Shown: one piece after another, positions 8,143 through 52,250 of the stretch | Layout: each line of letters opens with the position of its first letter | Numbering within the stretch: the first letter of the stretch is position 1 | Virus record (IMG/VR): IMGVR_UViG_3300018481_000007 | Coordinates: 1 to 60,698 of that record | Direction: 5' to 3' (one strand) | Length of the DNA: 60,698 nucleotides | Source: a virus | Taxonomy: Duplodnaviria > Caudoviricetes | Program-made: the position numbers and the translations under genes | The notes under the pieces: generated by a model | The model's database searches: none | Told to the model about the DNA's origin: nothing | What the model saw: only the letters and a program-made list of their open reading frames with translations

Positions 8143-11100
8143 TCAGCCCCCTTCCGGTGTCAGGTCGGCGTCCGGGTCGTTGCCGCCGTTGGGTGCCGGA
8201 GAGAGCACCACGTTGACGGTCTCACCCTTCTCGGTGGACTCCACACTGATCGAGTCGAGTTTCTGCCACTGCAGCACCTGTCGGGGTGTGTTGATCGAGC
8301 GCAGCGGCAGCCAGACCCCCGGGATCAACTGCTGGAAGCCGATCCCGGCCTTGGGGGACAGGGTGGAGTTGTCCGGCACCCGCACGATCAGCGGAGCGGG
8401 CCAGCGACCGGCGATGTTGCGCCCCGCCTGGGCGATCAGCGTCTCCTGGGCCTTCGCCAGAGCCGCTGGGGTGAGGATCTCCGTCGACGCGGCCGAGGAG
8501 TCGCTGTAGGACGACGCCAACTGCTCGATCGGACCGTACGGGTAGGTCTTGGCTGGGACCTCGACGGCACCGGCCACCCCGGCGTTGTTGGTGACCGCGA
8601 AGTAGGTCGCCAACTGCATCCCGTACTCGGTCACGATGGGGGAGTCGGAGAAGTCGCCGTCCCGCAGTTCCGGCAGCCGCCCGATGGCCCGGTGGGTGTC
8701 CCAGAGCAGGATCCGCCGGCCCACGGTGGTGTAGTCGAGCCCGGCGGTGGCCGCCAGGTCGTCGACCTCCTCCCAGATCGTGCGGGACCAGTCCGCGACG
8801 ATCCGGGCCTGCTTCGCGTCGTCGGGGTACTCGATGGACGTCAGGTAGGGCAGCACGTTGGGGTCGTACGGGGCCAACCCCTGGATCAGCAACATAGTGG
8901 CTCGCTTGACCACGCTCAGCACACCGGTGCTCTGCTCGGGGATGCTGCCGGAGGCCTTCTGCACCAGCCGGTAGGAGTCGTTGTAGCCCTGCCGCATGAT
9001 CCGGCGGTAGGCGTAGGCCATCACGTCCTTGGCCTCGATCTCGACCGAGTTCTGGGTGTACGCGATCCGGGTGATGGGTCCCTCCCAGACCCGGACCCCG
9101 TCCCGGAAGATCACCAACTCGTGCATCCAGGTGCGGACCGAGCCGTACAACTGACCACAGTCGGCCGAGTAGCCGTTGGAGAAGGCGGTGGCGCTGGAGA
9201 TGTCGTCACGGACCCGGTTGAAGACCAGTCGCCCCATCGGCTCGATCTCCCCGAGCAGCTTCTGCCCGCCCTGCTCGTAGATGAACGCCCGGTAGGTGCC
9301 ACAGCCCAACGAGCCACCGGGGATGAGCACGTCGTCCGCCGAGGGCAGGGGATCGGCCGCCGCCCCGGGGGTGTTCAGGGCATAGAAGTGGAAGGAGTCA
9401 GACCAGCCCGAGGCCAGAGCCATGGCGGTGTCGTAGGTGCGGACCGCCCACTCGTAGGTGTAGTCGGCCGTGAAGGTGTCGGCCTGGATCGCCCAGAACG
9501 TGTCAGCCCCGGGGATGCCGGGGGTGGGTAGGCCGTTCAGTTGGATCCAGCCGTCGTTGGGACCCAGCACAGGGGCGGTCCCGGCGGTCACCTCCTTGGT
9601 GCGGCCCAGGGGCCGGTAGCGGAGGTCCGCCTTCTGCTGCCGGTCGGCGGTGTCGGGGTCGACGAACCGCCAGGAGAAGGTGATGGCGGCGTGGACGTCC
9701 AGAGCCGAGGCCTTAGGCGGACTAAGCAGGACCGGCGGCGAGTTCGTCGACTGCGACCGGAAGGTGAACAGCAGCGACCAGCCACCCCACTGGCTGCGGG
9801 CCGCGTCCCGGGTGCGGACCTGCCACTCCCAGAAGTAGTTGCCGGTGAAGGTGTTGGGGTTGAAGACCCAGAAGTTCTTCGACGACGACGGCGGTCCGGC
9901 GACCACCGGGGAACCGTTCTGGCCGGTGTAGGAGGTGGTGACCACCCAGGCACCGGGTGCGGTGGTCGAGGTCGCCGCCTTGCGGTACTGGAGTTGGAAG
10001 CCGGACTGGTAGTCCGACGGGTCCGGGTCGTTGTGGGTCCAGGTGAAGGTGGCCGAGGAGGTGGAGGGCAGCGTCATGCCGTTGCCCGTGTTGTTGACCG
10101 TCAGGCCCGTGGGCGCGGTCGGGGCACGGTCGGTGTAGAAGGTGAAGCCGCTGTAGGAGACCGAGTACATCCCCTTGGCGTCCTGCGAGTAGACCCGGAC
10201 GTAGTACATCGTGTTGAGCGCCAGCCCGGACAGGGTGGCGGTGGCCACCCTGCCGTTCGCGTGGTAGGTGACCCAGGGCGACCAGGCCGTCTTGTACGAG
10301 GCGAAGTTGCTGGTGGACGAGTAGAGCACCCTCATCCGGACTTTTTGCTTGTTGGTGTCGATCAGGTTGGCCGTGACCTTCACCGACGAGCCAGCCTTGG
10401 TCATCATCCCGTTGGTGACATCGACCCCGTTCAACTTGATGGTGCGCGGGATGGCCGGTGGCTGGTTCGCCGGGGCCGGGGTGACGTAGGTGATGGTCAC
10501 CGCGCCGTTGCCGGTACCGCCGGCACCCTGGGTGTTGGCCGCGCCGCTCAGACCACCGGTGAAGGACGAGCCACCGCCACCGCTGCCGCCGGGTGACTGA
10601 CCCGCCGCCGAGGCCCGGCCACCACCGCCACCGCGCAGACCACCACCGCCACCACCGCCACCGTGACCCGACCCGCTGGGCGGGGCACCACCGGCCGCTC
10701 CCGGGGACAGTGTCTGGTCCCCGGCGTTGGCGCCGTTGTACTTTGCGTTGGTCGGGGAGGCCCCGCCGTTGCCACCCTGGGTCTGGGTGCCACCGGTGGC
10801 GATCCCGGTGACGCTGCCGGTGCCGAACAGCGAGCCGTCGTGGCCCGAGGGACCACCGCCCGCACCACCGAGGGCCCCGTCACCGGAGTTGCCACCCGCA
10901 CCGCCCGCGACCGCCTTCAACGTGCCCGTGGTGGAGCCGATCCGGATGCAGGAGTAGCCGCCACCGCTCCAGCCGCCCCGGTTCCCGCTGCCCAGGCCGT
11001 TGCCGCCCTTGCCACCACCGCCGGAGACCGCCGCGCCACCAGTGGTGGTGCTGTTCGCCCGCCCCGCCTGTCCGACGTGGCAGTAGATCTTCTGGCCTGG

Positions 11101-20333: not shown

Positions 20334-21941
20334 TCAGGGGACGGCGACGACGCAGGTCATGTCAGCAGCGCCGGTGGTGCCAGCGGTGCAGACCGGGATC
20401 TCCACAGCGAGGCTCTCGTAGCACTGCGGAGCCACGAGGATGCCCTGCTCGAAGAACAGCGCGGTGTAGGTGTTGGTGGCCAGCGAGGCCGCGTCGTAGA
20501 CCGCGTTCAGGTTGATGATGTCGGCGGTGCCCTTGATCCAGGTACCGGCCGGGTACATCAGCGCCTTGAAGGTGGCGGGCCATGCGTCGACCGCACCCAG
20601 GGGCTGCCAGTCGTAGGCGTACTGGACGGCCAACTTGCGAGCAGAGAACTCGGCGGCGATCAGCGCGTCGGTGACCGGGGAGATGTCCATGCCGGTCCGA
20701 CGGGACATGTCGGCCCGCAGGATGTCCTGCACGTAGAACGGCAGGATGACCTCCAGCGAGGAGTTGATCCCCAGGCGGTACTTCTCCTTCACCTGGTCGG
20801 CGTAGAGGGTCAGCGCGTCGAAGGTGTCGGTGGACACCGCGCCGAGCCCGGTCGCCGTCTTGGCCACGGAGCCGGTGGTGAGGGCGTTGAGCACCTTGGC
20901 GTTCATCTTGTGCTGGTGGGCGATCATCGAGCCCGAGATGTAGCGCTGCACCAACTCCGGGTAGGCCGCGTTGGTGAGGATCGGGGCCTTGATGCAGATG
21001 CCACAGGCCTCCAGCCGCACGTCCACGAAGGGCGGGCAGTCGATCTCCTGGCACGGCTTGGTGGTCCCGGCGATGGCCTGCGCCTCGGTCTGGCAGAAGC
21101 CAGCGTCGGCGTAGATGTCGGAGAAGTCCGGACCCCGGGTGTACTTGATGCCGCCCCGGGAGACGTTCACCTCGGGGATCGAGATGATGCCGTCCGTGGT
21201 CTCACCGGCACACAGGTCGTAGATGGTCTCGCTCGGTGCACACCAGCCACCGGCCGCAACCAGCGAGCCGCCGGGGAGGCGGGCCTCGCTCTGCGCGTAG
21301 GCGAGCACCTCCATGTCGTCGGAGTGCCGGTCAATGGTCAGTTCGGCGGGGAACTCCAGCCGGAACGAGGCGACACCGACGTGGCGGAGGTCCTCGCGGC
21401 TGCCGTCACCCGACGGCGGGCCGAAGCCGCGCATCCGGTTGACCATGGCGACGCCGACCTGCTCCAGGCCACCCAACTTGGCACCGGCCGCGAAGTCCGG
21501 CACGTCGGCGGCAGCAGTGATGGTGAGCGGGGCGCGCTGGGCGGCGGGCTTGGCCGGGCGGGCGGTCCGACGGGCGAGCGTCTGGACACCGGAGCGGGCC
21601 TGGGCGACCGGAGCGGCAGGAGCCTCCGGAGCGACCTCCTCGGTGGCCTCAGCCTCGTCGTCCTCGTCCTCGGTCTCCTCCTCGACCTCCTCGGGAGCCT
21701 CGGTGGAGAAGCGGGTGCGGAGAGCGGCGGTGCGGGCGGCGAGCGCCTCGGCGGCCTCGACCCGGGTGGCCTGCTCGGTGGCGATGGCCTCCAGGTGCTC
21801 GGCGTAGGCCTCGGCCTGGGTGACCTCGTCCTCGCTCGGGGCATCGGATGCGGCGATCGCATCGAAAGCGGCACGGACCTGGGTGGCGTAGGTCGCCAGC
21901 GCGTCAGGATCCAGTGCGGTGAAGTTCTTGTTGAGGTCCAC
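20334..21941 (-). CDS. Major capsid (hexamer) protein with N-terminal scaffold-like region
   Basis: LVAAGGWCAPSETIYD...RGGIKY...AYPELV...N.YTALFFEQG. Confidence 0.9.
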   Translation of the reverse strand: MDLNKNFTALDPDALATYATQVRAAFDAIAASDAPSEDEVTQAEAYAEHLEAIATEQATRVEAAEALAARTAALRTRFSTEAPEEVEEETEDEDDEAEATEEVAPEAPAAPVAQARSGVQTLARRTARPAKPAAQRAPLTITAAADVPDFAAGAKLGGLEQVGVAMVNRMRGFGPPSGDGSREDLRHVGVASFRLEFPAELTIDRHSDDMEVLAYAQSEARLPGGSLVAAGGWCAPSETIYDLCAGETTDGIISIPEVNVSRGGIKYTRGPDFSDIYADAGFCQTEAQAIAGTTKPCQEIDCPPFVDVRLEACGICIKAPILTNAAYPELVQRYISGSMIAHQHKMNAKVLNALTTGSVAKTATGLGAVSTDTFDALTLYADQVKEKYRLGINSSLEVILPFYVQDILRADMSRRTGMDISPVTDALIAAEFSARKLAVQYAYDWQPLGAVDAWPATFKALMYPAGTWIKGTADIINLNAVYDAASLATNTYTALFFEQGILVAPQCYESLAVEIPVCTAGTTGAADMTCVVAVP

Positions 21942-22109
21942 GGGACTTGCTCCTCGGCTCGAAGATGGGGCTGCGCCAAGCGCAAGTCGAGATCCCCGGG
22001 CACCAAGGTCCAGCGGAAGAACTTCCTAGGCCGGGACAGTACACCCAGAACAGGGGGGTCCGCTGCAGGGGGAGTGCTTAGGCTGCCTAAGGCGGCGTAC
22101 CGTCAGGCC

Positions 22110-22190
22110 ATGAATACGAACGCCATTGCGGCGGCGACCCTGGTGATCGTCGTCATCCTGCTAGTGATTGCCCTCATCGGCATCTTCTGA
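22110..22190 (+). CDS. 26-aa single-TM peptide, leaderless
   Basis: MNTNAIAAATLVIVVILLVIALIGIF; TACCGT -10 lies 6 nt upstream. Confidence 0.55.
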   Translation: MNTNAIAAATLVIVVILLVIALIGIF

Positions 22191-22191
22191 G

Positions 22192-22407
22192 GTGACCGCC
22201 TTTCGCCAGATCGTCATCTGTTGCAACGCGAAGGACTGCAACATCTGCACGACCGTCGGCGGGAAGTCGGTGAAGGCCGCCCGGAATGCGCTCTGGCTCG
22301 GCGGCTGGACCCAGCACAAGAAGCGCGACCGATGCCCGCTGCACAACCCGAAGCGGGACGACGTCCAGGGACGGCGGACGAGTATGGAGTGGAAAGGTCA
22401 GCCATGA
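22192..22407 (+). CDS. Small zinc-binding protein
   Basis: CNAKDC...GW...DRCPLH. Confidence 0.6.
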   Translation: MTAFRQIVICCNAKDCNICTTVGGKSVKAARNALWLGGWTQHKKRDRCPLHNPKRDDVQGRRTSMEWKGQP

Positions 22408-22503
22408 TCCTGTGGTGTCTGCGGCTGTGGTGGCGGCTGTGCGACTGGGCCACCAGCCCGCCCTCGTACCGATGGAACGGCGAGGAGCAGCGCTACCACC
22501 CGG

Positions 22504-23109
22504 TCAGCCACCGGGGCTGGGGTTGGGGTCCAGGAGACACACCCAGACCGGCAGGTCCTGGTCCTCGGGAGCGCGCTGATGAACCTCGATCCGACCGAAG
22601 GTGAACCCCGGCGGGCAGAAGACCTGACTCGCAGCGGTGGGGCTGGGGGCGGGGAGGCCAGGGGGTCCGACTGGCCCCGGTGGACCTTGTTCGCCTTCAG
22701 CGCCGTCCTCTCCGGGCTCGCCTTGTGGACCGGCTGGGCCTGGCTCACCCTGTTCGCCCTCGGCGCCCTGCTCGCCGGGATCACCATCAACGCCTGGAGC
22801 ACCCGTCGCGTCCAGCCCCGGCGGGCCAGCGGGACCCGGGCCTCCGGGCTCACCTTGCACGCCAGGCGGGCCGACATCGCCCTGCTGGCCGTCAAGTCCC
22901 GGCTGGCCGACCCCATCTACACCGGGAGCCCCCGAGGGCCCGCTGGGGCCAGGAGGGCCCGCTGGACCCGCTGGGCCAACGAAAGTCTGGGGAGCCCCCG
23001 GCGCGCTCGGGGCGCTGACGATGCCGTTGATGACAGCCCCGGCGAAGGCGAGGGTCGCTAGTCCTCCGGCGACCCAGTACCCGAGGGGACTAGCCGTCAG
23101 CCGCGACAT
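22504..23109 (-). CDS. Membrane-anchored collagen-like protein
   Basis: N-terminal TM segment; long Gly-X-Y run; CPPGF tail. Confidence 0.8.
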
Positions 23110-23380
23110 CGGTCTTCTCCACCGCCTGGGCGTACCGCTGCTTGGCAAGGGTGGCGTCGGTGCGCCCGGCGAGGAATCCAGCCAGCAGACCGATCAGGGT
23201 GTTCACCACGTCCGAGACGGCGTGGAAGCCCGCCGTGGTGTCCCGCTCGGGCACCCACAGTGTGACAATGAACAGCGCCATCCCGGAGGCCAGCACTGAG
23301 AAGCAGACGGTGCTGGCTATCACCAGGATCAGCAGGTCGCCCGTCGTCCGGTCGGCGAACCAGGGGCGACGCCGGATCAC
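23090..23380 (-). CDS. Putative holin
   Basis: Two TM segments; follows the lysin. Confidence 0.55.
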
Positions 23381-25077
23381 GGCAGCCCCGTCATCTCCCA
23401 GACCACGTAGTCACGCGCCGACGCCGATGCGCCACCCTCGCGCTTCGCCGCCAGCACCGCGCCGTTGGCCGCGAAGCACAGGCCCTCGGGCTCATCCTCG
23501 TCCGAGCCGGACAAGTGCATCCCGGTCACGTCGAACTTGTTGAGCAGGCAGGTGCCGTTCCAGTCGAACACGTCCAGCACGTGCTTGCCGCCGGACGGGT
23601 CCGGGGTCTCGTTGGTGCCGCCGTAGATCCGGTAGATCCGCTTCTCGTTGCACGACCACGACTGCTGGGTGAGGTCGGTGCGCTTAGAGAGGGTGACCTC
23701 CTTGATCGGCTTCGAGCGGTTGTCGCCGCCGGTGAAGTCGGTCCGGTCGAAGATCGAGATGGTCTCCTTGGTGTCCGTCGCGGAGCGGAAGCCCACCCGG
23801 TCGGTGTAGCCCGCCTGGGGCCGACCGCCCTGGTAGTCCATCTTGTCGCCAGAGGTGCGGGAGACCTTCTTGCCCGAGTTCCACGGGTAGCGGTACGAAG
23901 GGTCCTCGCCGCACCACACGTAGAGGTTCCCGGCGGCGGAGCGGTAGGCGTAGACGGTCTGCCCGTGCCCGGCGTCGTTGACCTGCATCCAGTCGATGTA
24001 CTTGCCGCTGGAGTCGAACATCAGGAACCGGATGTCCCCGGCGTTGTTGTAGTCCTGCGCCACGATCCAGCGCTCAGCGTGGGAGGTGCCGTCGTCCTCG
24101 GTCATGGCATCCACCCGAGCCATGCCCTGGAGGTAGGAGACCGAGCCGGACACCCCGTTCAGACTGAGCGTCTTGTAGTGCTTCCAGCCCGGCTTGGCTG
24201 CGGGTGGTGGTGCGGAGACCTTGGCGAGGTAGTCGCTGGAGTACCAGTTGGTGCCACCGGTGATCCAGCCGCTAACCGGATCACCGGTGACATCGAACTC
24301 GTAGCCCGTCTCGCGGACGATCGTGTTGCCGTCCTTGTCGAGCGACTTCGGGCCACCGGGGAGGGTGCGGGCGGTGAGCCCACCGGAGGCGGTGACCTTG
24401 ACCGAGTCGCCCTTCTTGATCCCGGCAGCGTTCGCAGGGTCTGGCTTCACCATGGGGAACAGGTAGTCGGTCGAGTACCACACACCGTCTGGAGCCGGTT
24501 CCGGCGGCTCGGGGGGTCCGTCGGCCCCGGCCCAGGCCTGCAAGTCTGCCAGGGTTTTGAACTTCGGGGCACGGTTCTTGTCGTACGGCTCGGTCGTGTA
24601 CTGGTGGAACGTCCAGTCGGCCTGGATGCCGGGGTCGGAGCCACCGTTGAAGTTGGCGATCCACAGGTAGTTGCCGAAGAACGAGGAGGTGTCGTGGTTG
24701 AGCCACCAGTCCCGGTTGCAGTAGAGCCCCACCATGCTGTCGGGGAAGTTCTTCTGCAACGCCTTGATCGCCTGATCCTTCTGCGCGGTGGTCGGGTTGC
24801 TGGGGTCTTCCCAGTCGACGGCGATGAGGTCCCCGGGCCGCACGTCGGACTGGGCGGTGAACCACTCCACCTGCGCGGTTACGTCCCCGTCGTTAAGCCA
24901 GTGGTAGTGGCCGAGTTGCTTGCCACGATTCCGAACGACGCCGATCTGGTGCTCATAGTCGGGGTTCTTGTACGACTTCCCCTCGGTGGCCTTCACCCAG
25001 CAGTAGTCCCATGCGTCGTCCTCCCAGTTGCTGCTGTTGTTGGACGACACGTCGATGCCGATCAGTCCGTCGACCAT
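23377..25077 (-). CDS. Endolysin: GH25 muramidase, SH3b and C-terminal beta-propeller
   Basis: GIDVS...KATEG...GHYH...AVDWE...LWIANF...FHQYT; SH3b ending GWITGGTNWYSSDYL; GHG and EPEG propeller motifs. Confidence 0.85.
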   Translation of the reverse strand: MVDGLIGIDVSSNNSSNWEDDAWDYCWVKATEGKSYKNPDYEHQIGVVRNRGKQLGHYHWLNDGDVTAQVEWFTAQSDVRPGDLIAVDWEDPSNPTTAQKDQAIKALQKNFPDSMVGLYCNRDWWLNHDTSSFFGNYLWIANFNGGSDPGIQADWTFHQYTTEPYDKNRAPKFKTLADLQAWAGADGPPEPPEPAPDGVWYSTDYLFPMVKPDPANAAGIKKGDSVKVTASGGLTARTLPGGPKSLDKDGNTIVRETGYEFDVTGDPVSGWITGGTNWYSSDYLAKVSAPPPAAKPGWKHYKTLSLNGVSGSVSYLQGMARVDAMTEDDGTSHAERWIVAQDYNNAGDIRFLMFDSSGKYIDWMQVNDAGHGQTVYAYRSAAGNLYVWCGEDPSYRYPWNSGKKVSRTSGDKMDYQGGRPQAGYTDRVGFRSATDTKETISIFDRTDFTGGDNRSKPIKEVTLSKRTDLTQQSWSCNEKRIYRIYGGTNETPDPSGGKHVLDVFDWNGTCLLNKFDVTGMHLSGSDEDEPEGLCFAANGAVLAAKREGGASASARDYVVWEMTGLP

Positions 25078-25643
25078 CACTCGGCCGCCCATCCGTCGAC
25101 CAACTGGGTGACCACGAACGTGCTGCCGTAGGGCCTGGTCTTCACCACATCGCCTTCTCCGCTGGGCTCGTCCCGGCCGTTGAGTTCGCCGGACGCGATG
25201 ACGTACACCGTGTCCCCGACCTTGACACCGTTCGGGTTGTCCGGCTCGCCACCGGCGGCCAGGTAGGACAGCCGGATGCCCGCGATGTCCTCAGTCCAGC
25301 CCTGGTAGGTCAGGTTGCCCCAGTCCCGGTCGATCTCGTCGATGCTCACCGAGGCGCACTTGCCGTTGCTCTGCTGGTCGGTGGAGCGGACCATGCCACC
25401 ACCCAGCGACACCACGGCGTGGCCGTACCCGGAGCCGCCCCCGGTCCAGAACACGGGGGCACCCTCGGGTGGTGTTCGGTCACCCTTGTGCTTGTACTTG
25501 GCAGCGTTCCACTGAGCGGAGGCGTCGGGGTACTGGTGCGGGGACTCCAGCCACTCCTGGGTCTGCCACAGGCACATCCCTACCGAGCAGGTGGTGGTCG
25601 CCTTGGCGTTGTCCATCGCCTCCTTAGCCGACTGCACCACCAT
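25077..25643 (-). CDS. CHAP/NlpC-like cell-wall peptidase with truncated SH3b
   Basis: GMCLWQT...ASAQW...PPEGAPVFWTGG..YGHAVVSLGGG..RSTD. Confidence 0.8.
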   Translation of the reverse strand: MVVQSAKEAMDNAKATTTCSVGMCLWQTQEWLESPHQYPDASAQWNAAKYKHKGDRTPPEGAPVFWTGGGSGYGHAVVSLGGGMVRSTDQQSNGKCASVSIDEIDRDWGNLTYQGWTEDIAGIRLSYLAAGGEPDNPNGVKVGDTVYVIASGELNGRDEPSGEGDVVKTRPYGSTFVVTQLVDGWAAE

Positions 25644-25818
25644 CGTCAGCCACCCCCTTCTCGTCGCCGTTGCGGTAGTCCCGGTTCTGCTCTCCGCCGG
25701 GCGGATCGGGCGGGTCCGCCTTGCCCAGTACGGTCGAGCCGTCCGGCGCGGTGTCCTGCTTCTCGGGTACCGGATCAGCACCGCGCGTCCCCCCGGCCAC
25801 GCCGGTGTTGTCGCTCAC
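25624..25818 (-). CDS. Small low-complexity hypothetical protein
   Basis: GTGA overlap; fills the gap in the operon. Confidence 0.4.
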   Translation of the reverse strand: MSDNTGVAGGTRGADPVPEKQDTAPDGSTVLGKADPPDPPGGEQNRDYRNGDEKGVADDGGAVG

Positions 25819-25970
25819 TTGGCCCGGGCAACGACCTTGCCCCCGTTCGCCCTCACCACCGCCGCCCGCGCCTGGATCTCGCTGGGGTACTCCTTGGTGA
25901 TCGCGCCGTCCTTGGAGGTGAACACCCAGACCATGTTGGCGCTCTTGTTCTTGCCGCAGTTGCAACTCAT
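25815..25970 (-). CDS. Small protein MSCNCGKNK...EIQARAAVVRANGG (51 aa, below the track cutoff)
   Basis: Directly after the protease; typical CxCG small head-region protein. Confidence 0.7.
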   Translation of the reverse strand: MSCNCGKNKSANMVWVFTSKDGAITKEYPSEIQARAAVVRANGGKVVARAK

Positions 25971-25972
25971 GC

Positions 25973-28588
25973 TCAGACTCCTACTCTCTGGCGGAGCGCC
26001 GCCATCTTCTCGCGCCGGGCCAGGGCCTTGACCACGGCGGTCACCACCTCGTTCATCGGGTCGTCGGGCTTCTCCACCACACCGGCCGCGACCAGGCTCA
26101 CCTGGGTGCGGTTCTGCACCGACACCACCGGCAGCCCGGCAACGTTGACCGCGAGTGCCGCAACCAACTCCATCTGACCCGGAACCACCTCGCGCCAGTC
26201 GCCGGACACGTCGGAGGCCCGCAGGGCGTACACCTGCTTTTCGGTGGTGCCCGGCCGGACCCAGCCCGCTGCCCAGATGCCGTGCTCGTCGTCACCCACG
26301 CTCACGTCGGCCACCCCGGTCGAGGTGCTGTCGTAGTGCGCGATCGCAGCGCGGAAGTTCCGGCCCGGAGCGGCGTGCCCACCCCCCAGAGAGATGACCC
26401 CGGTGCGGGCGGAGGTTCCGTCGTCGAGCAGCACCTCCTTGCTGGCGTAGTAGGCGTAGTTGCACTGGCTCATCGGCGGTGCGACACAGACGTCCTCGTA
26501 GCCGATGTGGCAGGACGACCACTCCGCGATATGACCGAAGACCCGACCCTCCTCGGTCACGGTGAGATGGGTGGGCTCGGTCAGGTTCGGGTTCTGGAAC
26601 CAGTCCGCCGGGGCCTTGATGCCGCCCGAGGCGACCAGCGAGACGGACGGGGCAGGGTCGCCCTTAGGCCGACTAAGCGACTGCTCCGTCGGTGCCCGGC
26701 CCGGCCAGAAGCCGGTGGCGTCGTGATGCCACTGCGAGCAGATCTGGTTGAGGAAGCGCAGGTCCTCGGGGGAGTTGGCCGCGATCTTCTCCCCGACCAG
26801 GGTGCGGCAGCGGTTGAAGTCGCCCGGCACCCCCCAGTTGATCTTGGCGTAGCCCGGCTGGCCCTTCTTCGTCCAGTAGGCGTGGATGCGGCGGGTGTCC
26901 TCCGGGTGGGTCACCCAGCCCGGCCCGCGACCGAACGTCTCCGCCGCCTCGATGCTCGCCTTGATGACGTCCGGCGGCTCCTCGCCCAACTGCTTGTACG
27001 CACCGCGCAACTGGCGGGCGGCACTGGCCTTGGCCTCGGCCGGGGCGTCCACCTGGTTGAAACGGGACGCTGCGGCGTGCACACCGGCCCGGGACAGCGC
27101 GCCACCCGGCTCCTTGATCGGCAGTTTGTGGCAGGACTTCTCCTCGCCGTCACAGACGTGCAGGATCGTGGACTTCTTCCACTGCTCCGGGGTGAACCGC
27201 CCGGCGCTGCCGTCCCAGGCGGCGTCGGAGATCATCTCCACCACGTTGCCCGAGGTGGCCTGGCTGGCGGACACGGGCACGGTGTCACCGCTGGCCTTCG
27301 GAGCCACCGGCACCCAGCCGGGCTCGTCCTCGTCCATCGGCTCCTCGTCCTTGGCCTTGGCCGCGAGGCACTCCTCGTAGTCCGGGGCGTTCGGGTCGCA
27401 GTCGTCCTCGGCGATGTCGTCGATGTCATCCTCCGGGTTGGCCGACTCGTCTCTCTTCGGCGGGAACGCAGCCTCGTCGGCCCAGGTGCCCAGGGCGATG
27501 TACGCCTCGGCGAAGGCCGGGATCGAGACCAGGGAGGCGGACGCGATTCGCGCCGACGTGAAGGTGACCTGACCGGTCTCCTCGTCGAAGGTGAACTCGG
27601 AGTCATCGGCGTCCACGCTCACCCCGAACCGACCGAACTCGGCCACCAGTCCGACGATCTCGTCGGTCTCCGGGGTGTCGATCCAGATGCCCTCGGCCTG
27701 CATCAGGTTGACGCCGTTCTCGCTCGACACCCGCTCGATGATGTCGATCCGGCCCACCACCGTCGAGCCGTCATGGCCCTCGTTGGTGGCCCGCTGCCAG
27801 GTCAGCGGAAGGGGCAGGTCGCGGTTGCGCAGCGAGTCCGCAGTGAAGCGCCGGCCATCGCCGGACCACGCTCCCTCGGGGGCCAGAACGCCGTGCCAGG
27901 CGAGGGGGGTCTCCAGGGGCATGTCCATCTCCTTCGCAGCGGCGGCGGCCAGGGAGGCGGCCTCCGGTCCGTAGAACGGCACCGGCTGCAGCACGCACCG
28001 GCAGTTGATCGTGTTCTCCAGCGACCCCCGGGGGTCCCCGGGATACAGCAGATTCTCGCCACCGACGAAGAACAGCGAGCCAGCGGGGCGGCGTTGCCGG
28101 TCGGCCGCAGCGTGCGCCTCGCGGACCTTCCTGTCGTGCATCGTCGTCCACTTCAACAGAACCGGACGAGGGTCGTCGACACCGGCCTGGAGGGTTGCCG
28201 CGTTGATGGTGGCCACCGCCAGCCAGGTCGCCGCAGTGGTCGGGTCGGAGTCTGGCTCGGTGTGGGAGAGGACGGACTTCATCGAGTGGATGAACGCGGC
28301 TGTCCGGGCCTTCCGGTCACCGCCCTCGCTCAGGTAGGTGTCGAGGTAGAGCCGGACCAGTTTCTCGGCCAGTTCCTTGACGGCATCCGGGCCCTGCTCG
28401 ATGAAGTCCTTCACCTCGGGCAGCAGGAACGCGATCGCCTCATCCTGGGCGGTGCGCCGCCGCGCCGCGAACTCGATCGACGTGAGTGCCTCGACCCCCT
28501 CGGCGGTGAGTTCGAGGCTCATCGAGAAGGTCTTGTCGGTCTCAACGAAGACGTTCTCCCAGTCCGGACCCTCGGTGAAGACGGTCAT
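25973..28588 (-). CDS. MuF-like minor head protein fused to capsid maturation protease
   Basis: WTTMHDRKVREAH...YPGDP...INCRC; GDGRRF...LPLPL..Q...GHDGSTVVG; GRVFGHIA.W..CH; SGDWR. Confidence 0.85.
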   Translation of the reverse strand: MTVFTEGPDWENVFVETDKTFSMSLELTAEGVEALTSIEFAARRRTAQDEAIAFLLPEVKDFIEQGPDAVKELAEKLVRLYLDTYLSEGGDRKARTAAFIHSMKSVLSHTEPDSDPTTAATWLAVATINAATLQAGVDDPRPVLLKWTTMHDRKVREAHAAADRQRRPAGSLFFVGGENLLYPGDPRGSLENTINCRCVLQPVPFYGPEAASLAAAAAKEMDMPLETPLAWHGVLAPEGAWSGDGRRFTADSLRNRDLPLPLTWQRATNEGHDGSTVVGRIDIIERVSSENGVNLMQAEGIWIDTPETDEIVGLVAEFGRFGVSVDADDSEFTFDEETGQVTFTSARIASASLVSIPAFAEAYIALGTWADEAAFPPKRDESANPEDDIDDIAEDDCDPNAPDYEECLAAKAKDEEPMDEDEPGWVPVAPKASGDTVPVSASQATSGNVVEMISDAAWDGSAGRFTPEQWKKSTILHVCDGEEKSCHKLPIKEPGGALSRAGVHAAASRFNQVDAPAEAKASAARQLRGAYKQLGEEPPDVIKASIEAAETFGRGPGWVTHPEDTRRIHAYWTKKGQPGYAKINWGVPGDFNRCRTLVGEKIAANSPEDLRFLNQICSQWHHDATGFWPGRAPTEQSLSRPKGDPAPSVSLVASGGIKAPADWFQNPNLTEPTHLTVTEEGRVFGHIAEWSSCHIGYEDVCVAPPMSQCNYAYYASKEVLLDDGTSARTGVISLGGGHAAPGRNFRAAIAHYDSTSTGVADVSVGDDEHGIWAAGWVRPGTTEKQVYALRASDVSGDWREVVPGQMELVAALAVNVAGLPVVSVQNRTQVSLVAAGVVEKPDDPMNEVVTAVVKALARREKMAALRQRVGV

Positions 28589-30363
28589 GCCGAGACCTGA
28601 TCGGCCAGCCTCAGCCAGTTCACCAGCCGGTCCCGGCGGTGCGGGGACTGCTCCTTCATCAGCGAGACGCAGTACGAGGTGAGCACCGGCACCACGGTCT
28701 TGCAGTCCGCGATCCCCTCCAGCACCTGGGGTGCACAGGACCAGGCGTCCTCCAGCATCTTCTCGGCGGTGCCGTTGGCCTGGACGTACAGGTGGGTCTC
28801 ATACGCCGGGACACCGGGGGGCTTGGCCACGCTCTGCCGCAACCGGTTGCCCGCCCGCTCCAGGGCTCGGAAGACCAGAGCCTCGCTCGCCGCCACCAGG
28901 GCGTTCTCATCCGGGGTGCGGGGTCGGGTCGGATGCTCCTCAATCGAGGGGTCGGGCCGCGTTTCACGTGGAACAGCCTCGGGCAGGGCGATCGGTCCGA
29001 GGTCCACCCCGAGCACGCCGAGCGCCGCCTGCACCTGCTCCGGGGTGGCCGAGCCGGAGGCGACCTTGATCAGCAGCCAGCGCTGGAACTGGTCCGGGGC
29101 GGGCATGTCCTCGATTGAGAAGCCGTTCTCCCGCAGCAGTGCCTCGGCGGTGATCAGCCCTCGGTCGTACAACTCGAAGGCCTCCTTGCTGCGGTCCGGG
29201 CGCAGCCGCAGGGCGGTGGAGTTGTAGGACACCACCGAGGCGTCGTTCTCGCTCAACAGCGGGCGGAGGTAGCCGACGGTCAGGGCGTTGACGATGACGT
29301 CGAGCATCGGCTCGATGTGCAACTTGATGGTTGACTCTTCAACTTGCCACGCACCCCAGTGGCTGACCGTGCCCGAGGAGGCACCGGTGGAGGTGCCGCT
29401 CATCCCCAGCACCTGCTCCGGGGGGAGGTCCATGCCCAGGGCGAACCGTCGGATGGCCTCGTTCCGCAGACCCATCGACGCGGCGTCCAACTCGGACCAG
29501 AAGGTCAGCAGCCGGGCCTTGTCGATCACGTCGTCGGGGGCGGTGATCACGATCGGCACTACGGCGCTCGGCGAGGAGGGGTCCTCGATCGGCGTCATCA
29601 TCGCGTCGGCCAGCGTCGCCATGAACGTGGTCGCGTCGTTGGTGGTGGTCGGTGGGGAGGTGGTGCCGTCCGGGTTCAGCGTCTCCGGTGGCGGGGGGAA
29701 GGTCATCCCCTGCGGCATGATCAGGATGCCGCTGCCCGCCAGCCGCGAGGTGATCTGCGCGAACACGTGCCGGGTGAGCCACTCGATCTCAGAGAGGATC
29801 GGCAGCAGGGCGCGGAACGGGGAGTCGGCCTCGATCCGGTGCGCTGGGCTCGGCAGCCAGATCCGGATCACCACGTCGTCCTCGGTGAGGTTCACCGCCG
29901 GGATGCCCTGGCCGTAGTTGATCTGCCACTGGGTGCCTGCGACCACCATCTCCAGACAGGAGACAATCTCCCAGGTGTCTACCTCGTCGACCTGGCGACC
30001 GACGAGGTAGCACTCACCGGCGATGGTCAGGTGGGTGCCCAGGCTGTCGAGCATCTGGGTCTGGCCGTCACGACCGTTGAACAGCGCGTTCAGCAGGTCG
30101 GCGGCCGGTCCGGTGTCGGTCTCCACCGGCTGCCCAGCCACGATGGTGGAGGTGTGCAGCGAAGCACGGGACACGCTGTGGCCGAAGAACCTGGCAGCGA
30201 ACCTCGCCTCACCGCAGATGGAGTAGTGCCGGTAGCACTCGGCCTGCCAGTCCTGGCGCGGCTGGTAGATCCGCGCCGCTTTCCCCGGATAGCGAGTGGC
30301 TGATGCCACCATCGAGGAAGTGGGAATCACCACCGCTTCCGGCTCGACCTTGCGTCGTGGCAT
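28585..30363 (-). CDS. Portal protein
   Basis: SRLAGSGIL...AIRRFALGMDLPPE...SHWGAWQVEE; follows TerL. Confidence 0.9.
   Translation of the reverse strand: MPRRKVEPEAVVIPTSSMVASATRYPGKAARIYQPRQDWQAECYRHYSICGEARFAARFFGHSVSRASLHTSTIVAGQPVETDTGPAADLLNALFNGRDGQTQMLDSLGTHLTIAGECYLVGRQVDEVDTWEIVSCLEMVVAGTQWQINYGQGIPAVNLTEDDVVIRIWLPSPAHRIEADSPFRALLPILSEIEWLTRHVFAQITSRLAGSGILIMPQGMTFPPPPETLNPDGTTSPPTTTNDATTFMATLADAMMTPIEDPSSPSAVVPIVITAPDDVIDKARLLTFWSELDAASMGLRNEAIRRFALGMDLPPEQVLGMSGTSTGASSGTVSHWGAWQVEESTIKLHIEPMLDVIVNALTVGYLRPLLSENDASVVSYNSTALRLRPDRSKEAFELYDRGLITAEALLRENGFSIEDMPAPDQFQRWLLIKVASGSATPEQVQAALGVLGVDLGPIALPEAVPRETRPDPSIEEHPTRPRTPDENALVAASEALVFRALERAGNRLRQSVAKPPGVPAYETHLYVQANGTAEKMLEDAWSCAPQVLEGIADCKTVVPVLTSYCVSLMKEQSPHRRDRLVNWLRLADQVSA
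28960..28975. promoter_or_regulatory. parS-like site inside the portal gene
   Basis: Minus strand reads TGTTCCACGTGAAACG, versus canonical parS TGTTYCACGTGAAACA. Confidence 0.7.
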
Positions 30364-42606: not shown

Positions 42607-42714
42607 CCTGGCCGCGTCGGTTTCCTACCGACTCCTGGCCGCGTCGGTTTCTTTCCTCCCTGGCCGCGTGTCGGTTTCTTTCCCACCGAGCTCGGTGGCG
42701 GTTTCTTTCCCACC
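42607..42714. repeat. Four imperfect direct repeats plus a 16-bp palindrome
   Basis: CCTGGCCGCGTCGGTTTC at 42607 and 42634, variant at 42659, core at 42699; CCACCGAGCTCGGTGG at 42683-42698. Confidence 0.85.
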
Positions 42715-42873
42715 CCCGATTCGTTCGGGCGGAAACCGCCGGCACCGCCGCGCCCCGCGCGCGCACCACCACCACCCCCGCGCGACCGCCGCGCCGCCGC
42801 GCGCCGACAGATTCTGGTCAATGAACGTCAACGAACGGGGGCCGGTATTCCAGTCAATGAATGTCAGGTCAAG

Positions 42874-51869: not shown

Positions 51870-52250
51870 ATGAGCACCACCCAGAACGAGACCCAGGGCA
51901 TCGCCCAGACCATCCGCACCGCGATGAACACGAACGGGGCAGGTGGCTACTACGACACCTACGCCCGGCCCGTGGTCGTGGCGCTGACTACGCGGGAGAC
52001 CGAACTCAGCGAGAAGTTGGTCGACTACGCGGTCGATGCCGGAGCGGATGGCGCCGAGGTCAAGGCCTACCTGCGCGAGATCGGCATGGCTGTGGCCACC
52101 GACCCCGAGTCCGAGGACCCCGAGTCCGAGGACGTCGAGTCCGAGGACGAGGACGCGACCACCACCCGGATCGCGTCCGCGCTGGAGCGGATCGAGCAGC
52201 GGATCGAGAGCCTGACCGACTTCGCTCGGCGCAACGGGTATCGCGGCTGA
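51870..52250 (+). CDS. Hypothetical protein with acidic 5-aa repeats
   Basis: AAAGGAA SD; DPESE repeats encoded at 52101-52145. Confidence 0.75.
   Translation: MSTTQNETQGIAQTIRTAMNTNGAGGYYDTYARPVVVALTTRETELSEKLVDYAVDAGADGAEVKAYLREIGMAVATDPESEDPESEDVESEDEDATTTRIASALERIEQRIESLTDFARRNGYRG

Follow-up and report, generated by a model that had tools for sequence, protein, structure and literature searches.

Within the virus record IMGVR_UViG_3300018481_000007 (Duplodnaviria; Caudoviricetes; 66.7% G+C), of which positions 1 to 60,698 were analysed and are called the window here, two overlapping lysin genes each hold one part of the same bacterial SH3 (SH3b) domain. Gene A encodes a peptidase head and a first SH3b domain (SH3b1) that stops before its last strand, and gene B encodes a GH25 muramidase domain, a proline-rich linker, a ten-residue orphan strand equivalent to the one missing from gene A, an intact second SH3b domain (SH3b2) and a C-terminal propeller (Table 1). 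The comparison with relatives makes it nearly certain that this arrangement arose through the insertion of GH25 together with a split of the gene. Structure prediction supports a reassembly of the two products without showing it, and we consider such a reassembly likely.

Two pieces of one SH3b domain

We examined the junction of the two genes, which an initial annotation, made from the letters of the window, had described as a CHAP gene ending in an incomplete SH3b, followed by a GH25 lysin with the segment DGVWYSTDYL between a proline linker and an intact SH3b. All that it described is present, with the correction that the two genes are encoded on the minus strand. Gene A stops after GWAAE (...QLVDGWAAE-TGA), and gene B reads ...PEPPEPAP-DGVWYSTDYL-FPMVKPDPANAAG-IKKGD...GWITGGTNWYSSDYL. 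The TGATG that it had seen between the genes was located, and the removal of 24490-25079 (590 nt) in a script gave, as it had foreseen, one open head-SH3-SH3-propeller frame. The stop/start overlap suggests that the translation of A and B is coupled. Overlapping stop and start codons (TGATG, ATGA or GTGA) were found at nine of nine distinct junctions, all broken at the same point; these junctions, at most 80% identical in pairwise nucleotide comparison, are those of the window, the L001 group (four identical copies), L003, L051, L052, L053, L055, L057 and L058.

The 11-bp direct repeat reported at the junction is also there, but it is not a general mark of such junctions: the L001 group has the 11-mer with one mismatch, and it is absent from the other seven. 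We rejected it as an insertion scar, since it occurs in one lineage only and the window contains 16 such local direct repeats, this one included (11 bp or longer, spacing of at most 50), where a third-order Markov model would predict 1.9; being lineage-specific, it carries no weight. Clusters of short local direct repeats lie at 42607-42785, 52101-52198 and 10618-10653.

Aligned with the intact SH3b2, the gene A tail showed 41% identity over 59 columns (E = 4e-7, in a single pairwise comparison), and the alignment ended exactly at GW, with the last ~15 residues of the intact domain unpaired in gene A. In P0019, one of the unsplit relatives described below, the first SH3b, including the equivalent of the orphan, matched the second from end to end (53%, 73 columns, E = 3e-18). 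The same comparison gave E ≤ 6.5e-4 in four of five unsplit proteins, and in P0024 it covered the last seven residues only (E = 0.013). Since the first domain of unsplit relatives aligns end to end with the second, the SH3b match of the split pieces is more than chance.

A Pfam scan of genes A and B returned no SH3 match at E ≤ 1. When 1.84 billion representatives were screened with a profile of nine gene-A-type tails (A6), 1159 proteins passed E ≤ 1e-3, of which 159 also passed E ≤ 1e-10. Eight of the 150 matches listed were scanned, and five of these, namely those with several matched stretches, contained tandem SH3_3 domains (E 1e-106 to 3.5e-41); homology to accepted SH3_3 members was found in this way at the level of the family profile. 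In the canonical SH3_3 repeats, a short turn and a ...G..G[YW]....YL strand come after GWA[KR], and this strand is the piece that is missing from gene A and carried by gene B as the orphan. The AlphaFold2 (AF2) model of SH3b2 had a predicted local distance difference test score (pLDDT) of 90-95, and its fold search is weakly consistent with SH3: Foldseek returned nothing from PDB at E ≤ 1e-3, the best match being the cell wall-binding domain of LysPBC5 (6ilu; E 0.11, probability 0.99, root-mean-square deviation 2.7, 67 columns) and the further ones mostly SH3 domains. A sequence profile of SH3b2 gave chance-level matches only in PDB, including designed double-psi barrels.

The domains flanking the divided SH3b1 were assigned with differing firmness. 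Gene A belongs to PHROG 12298 (E 7e-19), and its head scored below the cut-off for Pfam CHAP (15.4 bits versus 26, E 0.027), while the nested relative P0137 reached 26.5 bits against the same cut-off; in the model of nested P0009, the same head matched the NlpC/P60 structures 2k1g, 8i2d and 7cfl (Foldseek E 3e-3 to 7e-3). The Cys of its CLW motif is kept in the four of four CHAP-type rows that reach the N-terminal region (the window, P0028, P0029 and P0033; P0026 and P0027 are N-terminally truncated at the CLW region), and the His of the GHA/GHS motif in five of six CHAP-type rows, which suggests that these two residues may be the catalytic pair. The ATG and the MVVQSAKE start of gene A are common to P0028 and P0029.

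Gene B matches PHROG endolysin families (E 3e-21). Its GH25 domain scored 80.7 bits with PF01183 (cut-off 27), and the P0009 model matched GH25 structures including 1jfx, 2x8r and 4krt (Foldseek E 1e-9 to 1e-5). D9, D88 and E90, which we take to be the GH25 catalytic residues, are invariant in 16 rows. The propeller passed PF21311 over a short stretch only (residues 356-389; 26.3 bits versus a cut-off of 23.7), and the top Foldseek match of the P0009 model was the receptor-binding protein of phage NF5 (9m7x, E 1.4e-12).

Table 1. Features of the two lysin genes and of the surrounding gene block, in window coordinates and in the direction of transcription.
Feature	Positions	Strand	Basis or remark
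Portal	28585-30363	-	first in block
MuF-like/protease fusion	25973-28588	-	between portal and 51-aa open reading frame
51-aa open reading frame	25815-25970	-	upstream of gene A, after head-morphogenesis gene
Gene A, lysin 1	25077-25643	-	188 aa plus stop; open reading frame; peptidase head and C-terminally truncated SH3b
NlpC/P60-CHAP-like peptidase head of gene A	25269-25643	-	sub-threshold Pfam CHAP; Foldseek of P0009 model
Linker (EPDNPNG) and truncated SH3b1	25080-25247	-	ends GWAAE, without last strand; alignment to intact SH3b
11-bp direct repeat, copy 2	25092-25102	.	codes VDG, SH3b1 tail of gene A
TGATG stop/start overlap of genes A and B	25075-25079	-	gene B ATG shares A of gene A TGA
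11-bp direct repeat, copy 1	25066-25076	.	codes VDG, start of gene B
Gene B, lysin 2	23377-25077	-	566 aa plus stop; GH25, Pro linker, orphan strand, SH3b2, propeller
GH25 muramidase domain, probable inserted module	24538-25068	-	Pfam PF01183
Pro-rich linker	24490-24537	-	variable among relatives
Orphan last strand of SH3b1, DGVWYSTDYL	24460-24489	-	gene B residues 197-206; 16-row alignment
Linker and intact SH3b2	24226-24441	-	ends ...GWITGGTNWYSSDYL; AF2 and Foldseek
C-terminal 5-bladed beta-propeller	23380-24180	-	phage receptor-binding-platform type; Pfam PF21311
Holin-like small membrane protein	23090-23380	-	open reading frame; two hydrophobic stretches (Kyte-Doolittle scan); GTGA overlap
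Collagen-like (Gly-X-Y) protein	22504-23148	-	directly after holin-like open reading frame
Major head protein	20334-21941	-	downstream end of block

Relatives, origin and conservation of the split

Residues 175-300 of gene B retrieved 25 homologues. The majority (17/25) begin with GH25 and are of the split type, P0005 and P0022 among them having a frameshifted or truncated C-terminus. Four are unsplit (P0017, P0019, P0024 and P0025), with the order head-SH3b-SH3b-propeller, an intact first SH3b and no GH25, and the remaining four (P0007, P0009, P0020 and P0021) are nested, GH25 following ...GWAQE within one open reading frame in the order GWAQE, 20-60-residue linker, GH25, Pro linker and orphan strand. 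The search of representatives added the nested P0137, the nested but truncated P0063 and the unsplit P0168. The head of P0019 is of the CHAP-like type of gene A. The initial annotation had proposed that a GH25 module entered an SH3b loop, and these natural unsplit and nested intermediates directly support the proposal, with the last hairpin loop of the first SH3b as the site of insertion.

A number of relatives depart from the three architectures. P0137 (740 aa) has the nested SH3b/GH25 module and the orphan with a different C-terminal region and no SH3b2, and in P0020 (804 aa) the GWAQE motif is repeated within a long linker. A search of viral contigs with P0019 found no relatives. L004:3539-5395 has an M23 head fused to GH25 in one open reading frame, without both SH3b1 pieces and without SH3b2, and with a single in-frame TGA between the Pro linker and the propeller; it could be a true third architecture, a nonsense mutation or a case of read-through. 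L004 forms a natural contrast to the split type and is counted in favour of the reassembly proposed below: the two SH3b1 pieces are absent, and the M23 head and GH25 are linked covalently. L060:539-1591 has a different head and a single SH3b ahead of the propeller, and it may represent the state before the SH3b duplication. Its head resembles those of P0017, P0024 and P0025, which are annotated with PF26571 in the database; our Pfam scan of P0017 did not return this family. Run X4 contains a 1079-nt contig from soil (record 21) that agrees with GH25 and with the beginning of the propeller, but 200 other letters stand in place of 437 (24169-24607). Being shorter by about one SH3b unit, it may come from a variant in which GH25 and propeller are separated by a single domain or by a different one.

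When a tree was built from the C-terminal part common to all (24 rows, the truncated P0005 and P0022 being excluded), the three architectures were interleaved, which requires at least five changes overall, at least three between nested and split and at least two in the presence or absence of GH25. A single clade of all GH25-bearing rows was rejected by the approximately unbiased test (p-AU 0.004), the group having been chosen after the tree was seen. In the tree of GH25 (21 rows), at least four changes separate nested from split. The pattern, counted in favour of the reading given below, is one of fusion in some lineages and splitting in others.

We then examined the conservation of the two pieces. 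A tail search with gene A gave 16 proteins of 103-331 aa with two types of head, six CHAP-like and ten M23, and in all 16, with either head, the C-terminus lies 0-4 residues past GWA.E. The search for longer homologues with the gene A tail found none at E ≤ 1e-3; this is a weak negative, the nested forms having surfaced by other routes. On the gene B side, G198, W200, S202, T203, D204, Y205 and L206 of the orphan are invariant in 16 of 16 rows (alignment A1), while the Pro linker before it varies (A1 columns ~196-216), with 44-75% amino acid identity in six pairs. Pairwise ratios of nonsynonymous to synonymous substitution rates (dN/dS) between the window and six loci were 0.13-0.47 for the gene A tail and 0.06-0.21 for the orphan plus linker (residues 197-216), that is, as low as or below those of GH25 (0.27-0.44) and of the propeller (0.11-0.66). 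Decay of both fragments in relatives, which the initial annotation had named as the sign of a recent neutral scar, was not seen; both are among the best conserved parts. The arrangement recurs in many related soil phages; its pieces are conserved and under purifying selection, and are therefore not a neutral scar.

Predicted reassembly and its alternatives

To predict a complex, gene B residues 170-300 were combined with the gene A tail (residues 121-189), each with its own alignment; chain A is numbered on a 189-aa translation, one residue more than the gene. The complex score was 0.83, and the best of three controls reached 0.00. The score mark is reached by 58 of 80 solved complexes and by 2 of 110 mismatched pairs, counts that hold only roughly here because own alignments were used. 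The runs agreed in at least 94% of contacts, with a partner pLDDT of at least 76. The predicted interface joins B 195-209 and 211 (plus 238-243) to A 135-189, with B 200-203 adjoining A 186-188 (the GWA strand) and B 205-209 adjoining A 147-150 (the first strand). If the strands of SH3b2 in the gene B model are taken as a guide to their order, these contacts fall where the last strand of an intact SH3b would be expected. The interface residues of the A tail and of the B orphan are nearly invariant. The A tail had a pLDDT of 77-82 with B and of 30 when chain 1 was swapped for an unrelated protein, and the orphan had 56-62 when gene B was folded without A. In nested P0009, the orphan block was modelled at pLDDT 86 between linkers below 50.

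From these observations, the following course can be proposed. An uncultivated soil phage of high G+C content would carry a two-gene endolysin derived from a single head-SH3b-SH3b-propeller lysin. GH25 with its Pro-rich linker would have entered the first SH3b at its last hairpin loop, which lies between the GWA.E and W-Y-S-T-D-Y-L strands, and in this lineage overlapping stop and start codons would also have interrupted the chain where the insert begins on its upstream side, leaving gene A with the peptidase and an SH3b without its last strand, and gene B with GH25, the missing strand, the intact SH3b and the propeller. Both proteins would be made from coupled cistrons, and the orphan of B would insert between the first and penultimate strands of the incomplete barrel of A (beta-strand complementation). 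SH3b1 would be rebuilt in this way, and peptidase and muramidase would be tied in one non-covalent enzyme sharing the wall-binding SH3b and propeller of B; this physical reassembly and its stoichiometry are what we infer. We consider it rather probable that an SH3 barrel lacking one strand and a ten-residue strand form a natural split-domain device coupling peptidase to muramidase, with the unsplit, nested and split forms interconverted several times. It is unlikely that the assembly also serves as a control step in which the gene A peptidase reaches the wall only when docked on B.

Several points weigh against reassembly or against the way in which it is read here. The complex score is a prediction and no measurement, which supports binding without showing it; the strand-donating heterodimer of the initial annotation has passed this one computational test, with clean controls and with predicted contacts at the expected strands. 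The halves of split domains tend to pass through their likeness to solved SH3 folds, so that the pass may reflect the fold and not the pair. The contact between the two SH3b1 segments in P0009 is deduced from pLDDT alone. Direct matches to Pfam SH3_3 (PF08239) stay below the gathering score of 27 bits; over profile positions 2-37 of 54, P0017 scored 16.3, P0030 13.1, P0050 18.9 and P0063 16.6 bits. The segments used for dN/dS are short (20 and ~53 codons), with dS saturated in distant pairs, and the orphan might be conserved in part because it contributes to the linker that leads to SH3b2. The interleaving in the trees can come from recombination instead of repeated fission and fusion; under either, the module can serve as a single chain or as two chains. 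Lastly, the endolysin role is deduced from gene context.

In an alternative reading, the insertion and the split are real but the proteins do not reassemble: the truncated SH3b of A would work alone as a spacer, as a weak wall binder or in self-association, the orphan would be kept only as part of the linker that positions SH3b2, and the two lysins would act independently. The minor contacts predicted between A and B 238-243, which lie outside the orphan, would fit this, as would the faster evolution of the tail in L055 (35% amino acid identity to the window; against its close relative L052, 69% in the tail and 91% in the head), and the products of the split lysin A genes of Gordonia phages are treated as separate single-domain enzymes in the relevant part of the report on them (PMC9671378). 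However, the break point and both pieces are conserved together at the nine distinct junctions, the orphan is invariant although the adjoining linker is free to vary, each piece is modelled with lower confidence without the other, and the nested single chains keep both pieces flanking GH25. We therefore regard independent action as rather unlikely. That the pieces are decaying leftovers of a recent recombination is hardly credible, since this has nothing in its favour beyond the general mosaicism of phage lysins, whereas the arrangement is common to relatives down to ~55-60% nucleotide identity at the junction, dN/dS of both pieces is well below 1, and the 16 gene-A tails and 16 gene-B orphans are all intact.

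The split might also be unreal at the protein level, either through an assembly or frameshift error in a nested open reading frame or through a programmed -1 frameshift that gives a fused chain. Nested single-frame relatives do exist, and in the window the gene B frame stays free of stops over the 71 codons that precede its ATG. On the other side, nine independent junctions keep the overlapping stop and start, the same junction is spanned by contigs from three runs (X1, X2 and X3), the overlap contains no X XXY YYZ heptamer, and in the L001 group the gene B frame is closed two codons upstream of the ATG, which together make an artefact or a frameshift very improbable; moreover, the nested forms have an extra linker of 20-60 residues that the split forms are without. 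Programmed frameshifting was rejected for its lack of a slippery heptamer and the closed frame in the L001 group. Finally, GH25 might be a mobile or excisable cassette, the unsplit P0019 having arisen by precise loss, a GH25-less allele co-existing and the halves being kept for reversibility. In the C-terminal tree, P0019 does have P0023 as its sister (support 90/87) amid split and nested forms, and the rejection of a single GH25-bearing clade points the same way, with the reservation given above on the choice of that group. This idea remains quite improbable: the tree can be explained just as well by an exchange of C-terminal modules through recombination, neither conserved flanking repeats nor other marks of mobility accompany the lineage-specific 11-mer, and the invariant orphan is left unexplained. 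The excised variant that the initial annotation had allowed for has a counterpart in the unsplit lineages, but the joint 24489>25080 of such an allele of this phage is not in the contigs of four runs (X1-X4), which is no evidence of absence because contigs cannot reveal rare variants.

Lysis cassette and comparison with known systems

The two lysin genes and the holin-like open reading frame form a lysis cassette that lies between the genes for the MuF-like/protease fusion and the major head protein, within a block on the minus strand (20334-30363). The stop codon of gene B is overlapped by the GTG of the holin-like open reading frame (GTGA, 23377-23380), so that genes A, B and the holin-like gene all overlap in a chain and are therefore probably coupled cistrons. 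A PHROG search of the holin-like open reading frame gave no match, and from its two hydrophobic stretches and position, its product may act as a holin; the cassette would then work as an endolysin whose product is released via this downstream protein. The order of head gene, small open reading frame, lysin and lysin on the upstream side of the cassette is kept in L001 and L003. The 51-aa open reading frame, which has an N-terminal C-x-C motif and is without a PHROG match, is conserved in both. The collagen-like protein has an N-terminal hydrophobic segment, and its PHROG matches are limited to tail-fibre collagen repeats.

A DNA search of the region against INPHARED phages gave no match, and protein searches against INPHARED gave distant matches to catalytic domains only. 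In cellular genome contigs, 39 loci matched GH25 domains only (37-44% identity), 37 of them in Streptomyces and the other two in Actinacidiphila rubida and in an uncultured Actinomycetota metagenome-assembled genome. None of the 39 has the orphan, SH3b and propeller, and no prophage copy or host was found among them. In one of these cellular loci, L008, GH25 precedes two repeats that, by eye, we presume to be LysM-like. The G+C content and the distant lysin matches suggest that the host is possibly actinobacterial.

If the two products reassemble, this would explain how at least some split lysin genes still act as one targeted enzyme. The unsplit, nested and split forms would also offer a natural series in which domain insertion and gene fission can be studied, and the small natural pair of strand and barrel could serve as a ready-made, genetically validated complementation tag for building modular lysins.

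Multi-chain endolysins are known, and PlyC is one that is encoded by two genes. In CTP1L, phi2638A and others, internal starts give heteromeric endolysins in which one lysin is made from more than one polypeptide (PMC4777826, PMC12203907, PMC9430671). In these known cases, whole folded binding domains associate with one another, whereas here two chains would together complete a single fold, the second of them adding a catalytic domain of its own. In Gordonia phages (clusters CT, DR and others), two adjacent genes with one catalytic domain each replace a single multi-domain lysin A, and the part of the report that deals with them treats the products as separate enzymes and calls the effect of the splitting unknown (PMC9671378). 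Genes A and B resemble these, being adjacent genes with one peptidoglycan-hydrolase domain each in a lysis cassette with a holin-like open reading frame. In contrast to that account, which in the same part describes no shared divided domain, the cut here crosses a wall-binding domain of which each gene keeps one part.

The Psm endolysin of Clostridium phage phiSM101 (4krt), the second Foldseek match of the nested P0009 model (E 1e-10), has the same domain types, GH25 and two tandem SH3_3, but in series in one chain, with nothing nested or split and without the peptidase head and propeller. In the donor-strand complementation of chaperone-usher pili, an incomplete beta fold is completed by the strand of another polypeptide; it differs in its Ig-like fold, its biology and its serial polymerisation, and there is no homology. 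Full-text searches of the literature, with subscription journals and supplements outside their scope, returned no description of a lysin binding domain divided between two genes.

The nearest mechanistic counterpart is the SH3-GK module of MAGUK proteins and of CaV-beta. Crystal structures of the split SH3 of MAGUK proteins are available. In this module, the final SH3 strand is set apart from the remainder of the SH3 by a large intervening domain; halves made in the laboratory bind each other in trans, and deletion of the short strand segment abolishes the interaction, as given in the portion of the report that treats them (PMC2266626). As described there, that system is eukaryotic and cytoplasmic and consists of one natural chain split in the laboratory, whereas here the split of a bacterial SH3_3 in a phage lysin is natural, genetic and conserved; the two have no homology past the SH3 fold class. 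In summary, multi-chain endolysins and split lysin A genes were known already, and what has not been found described is the proposed link between the chains, one binding-domain fold divided between genes.

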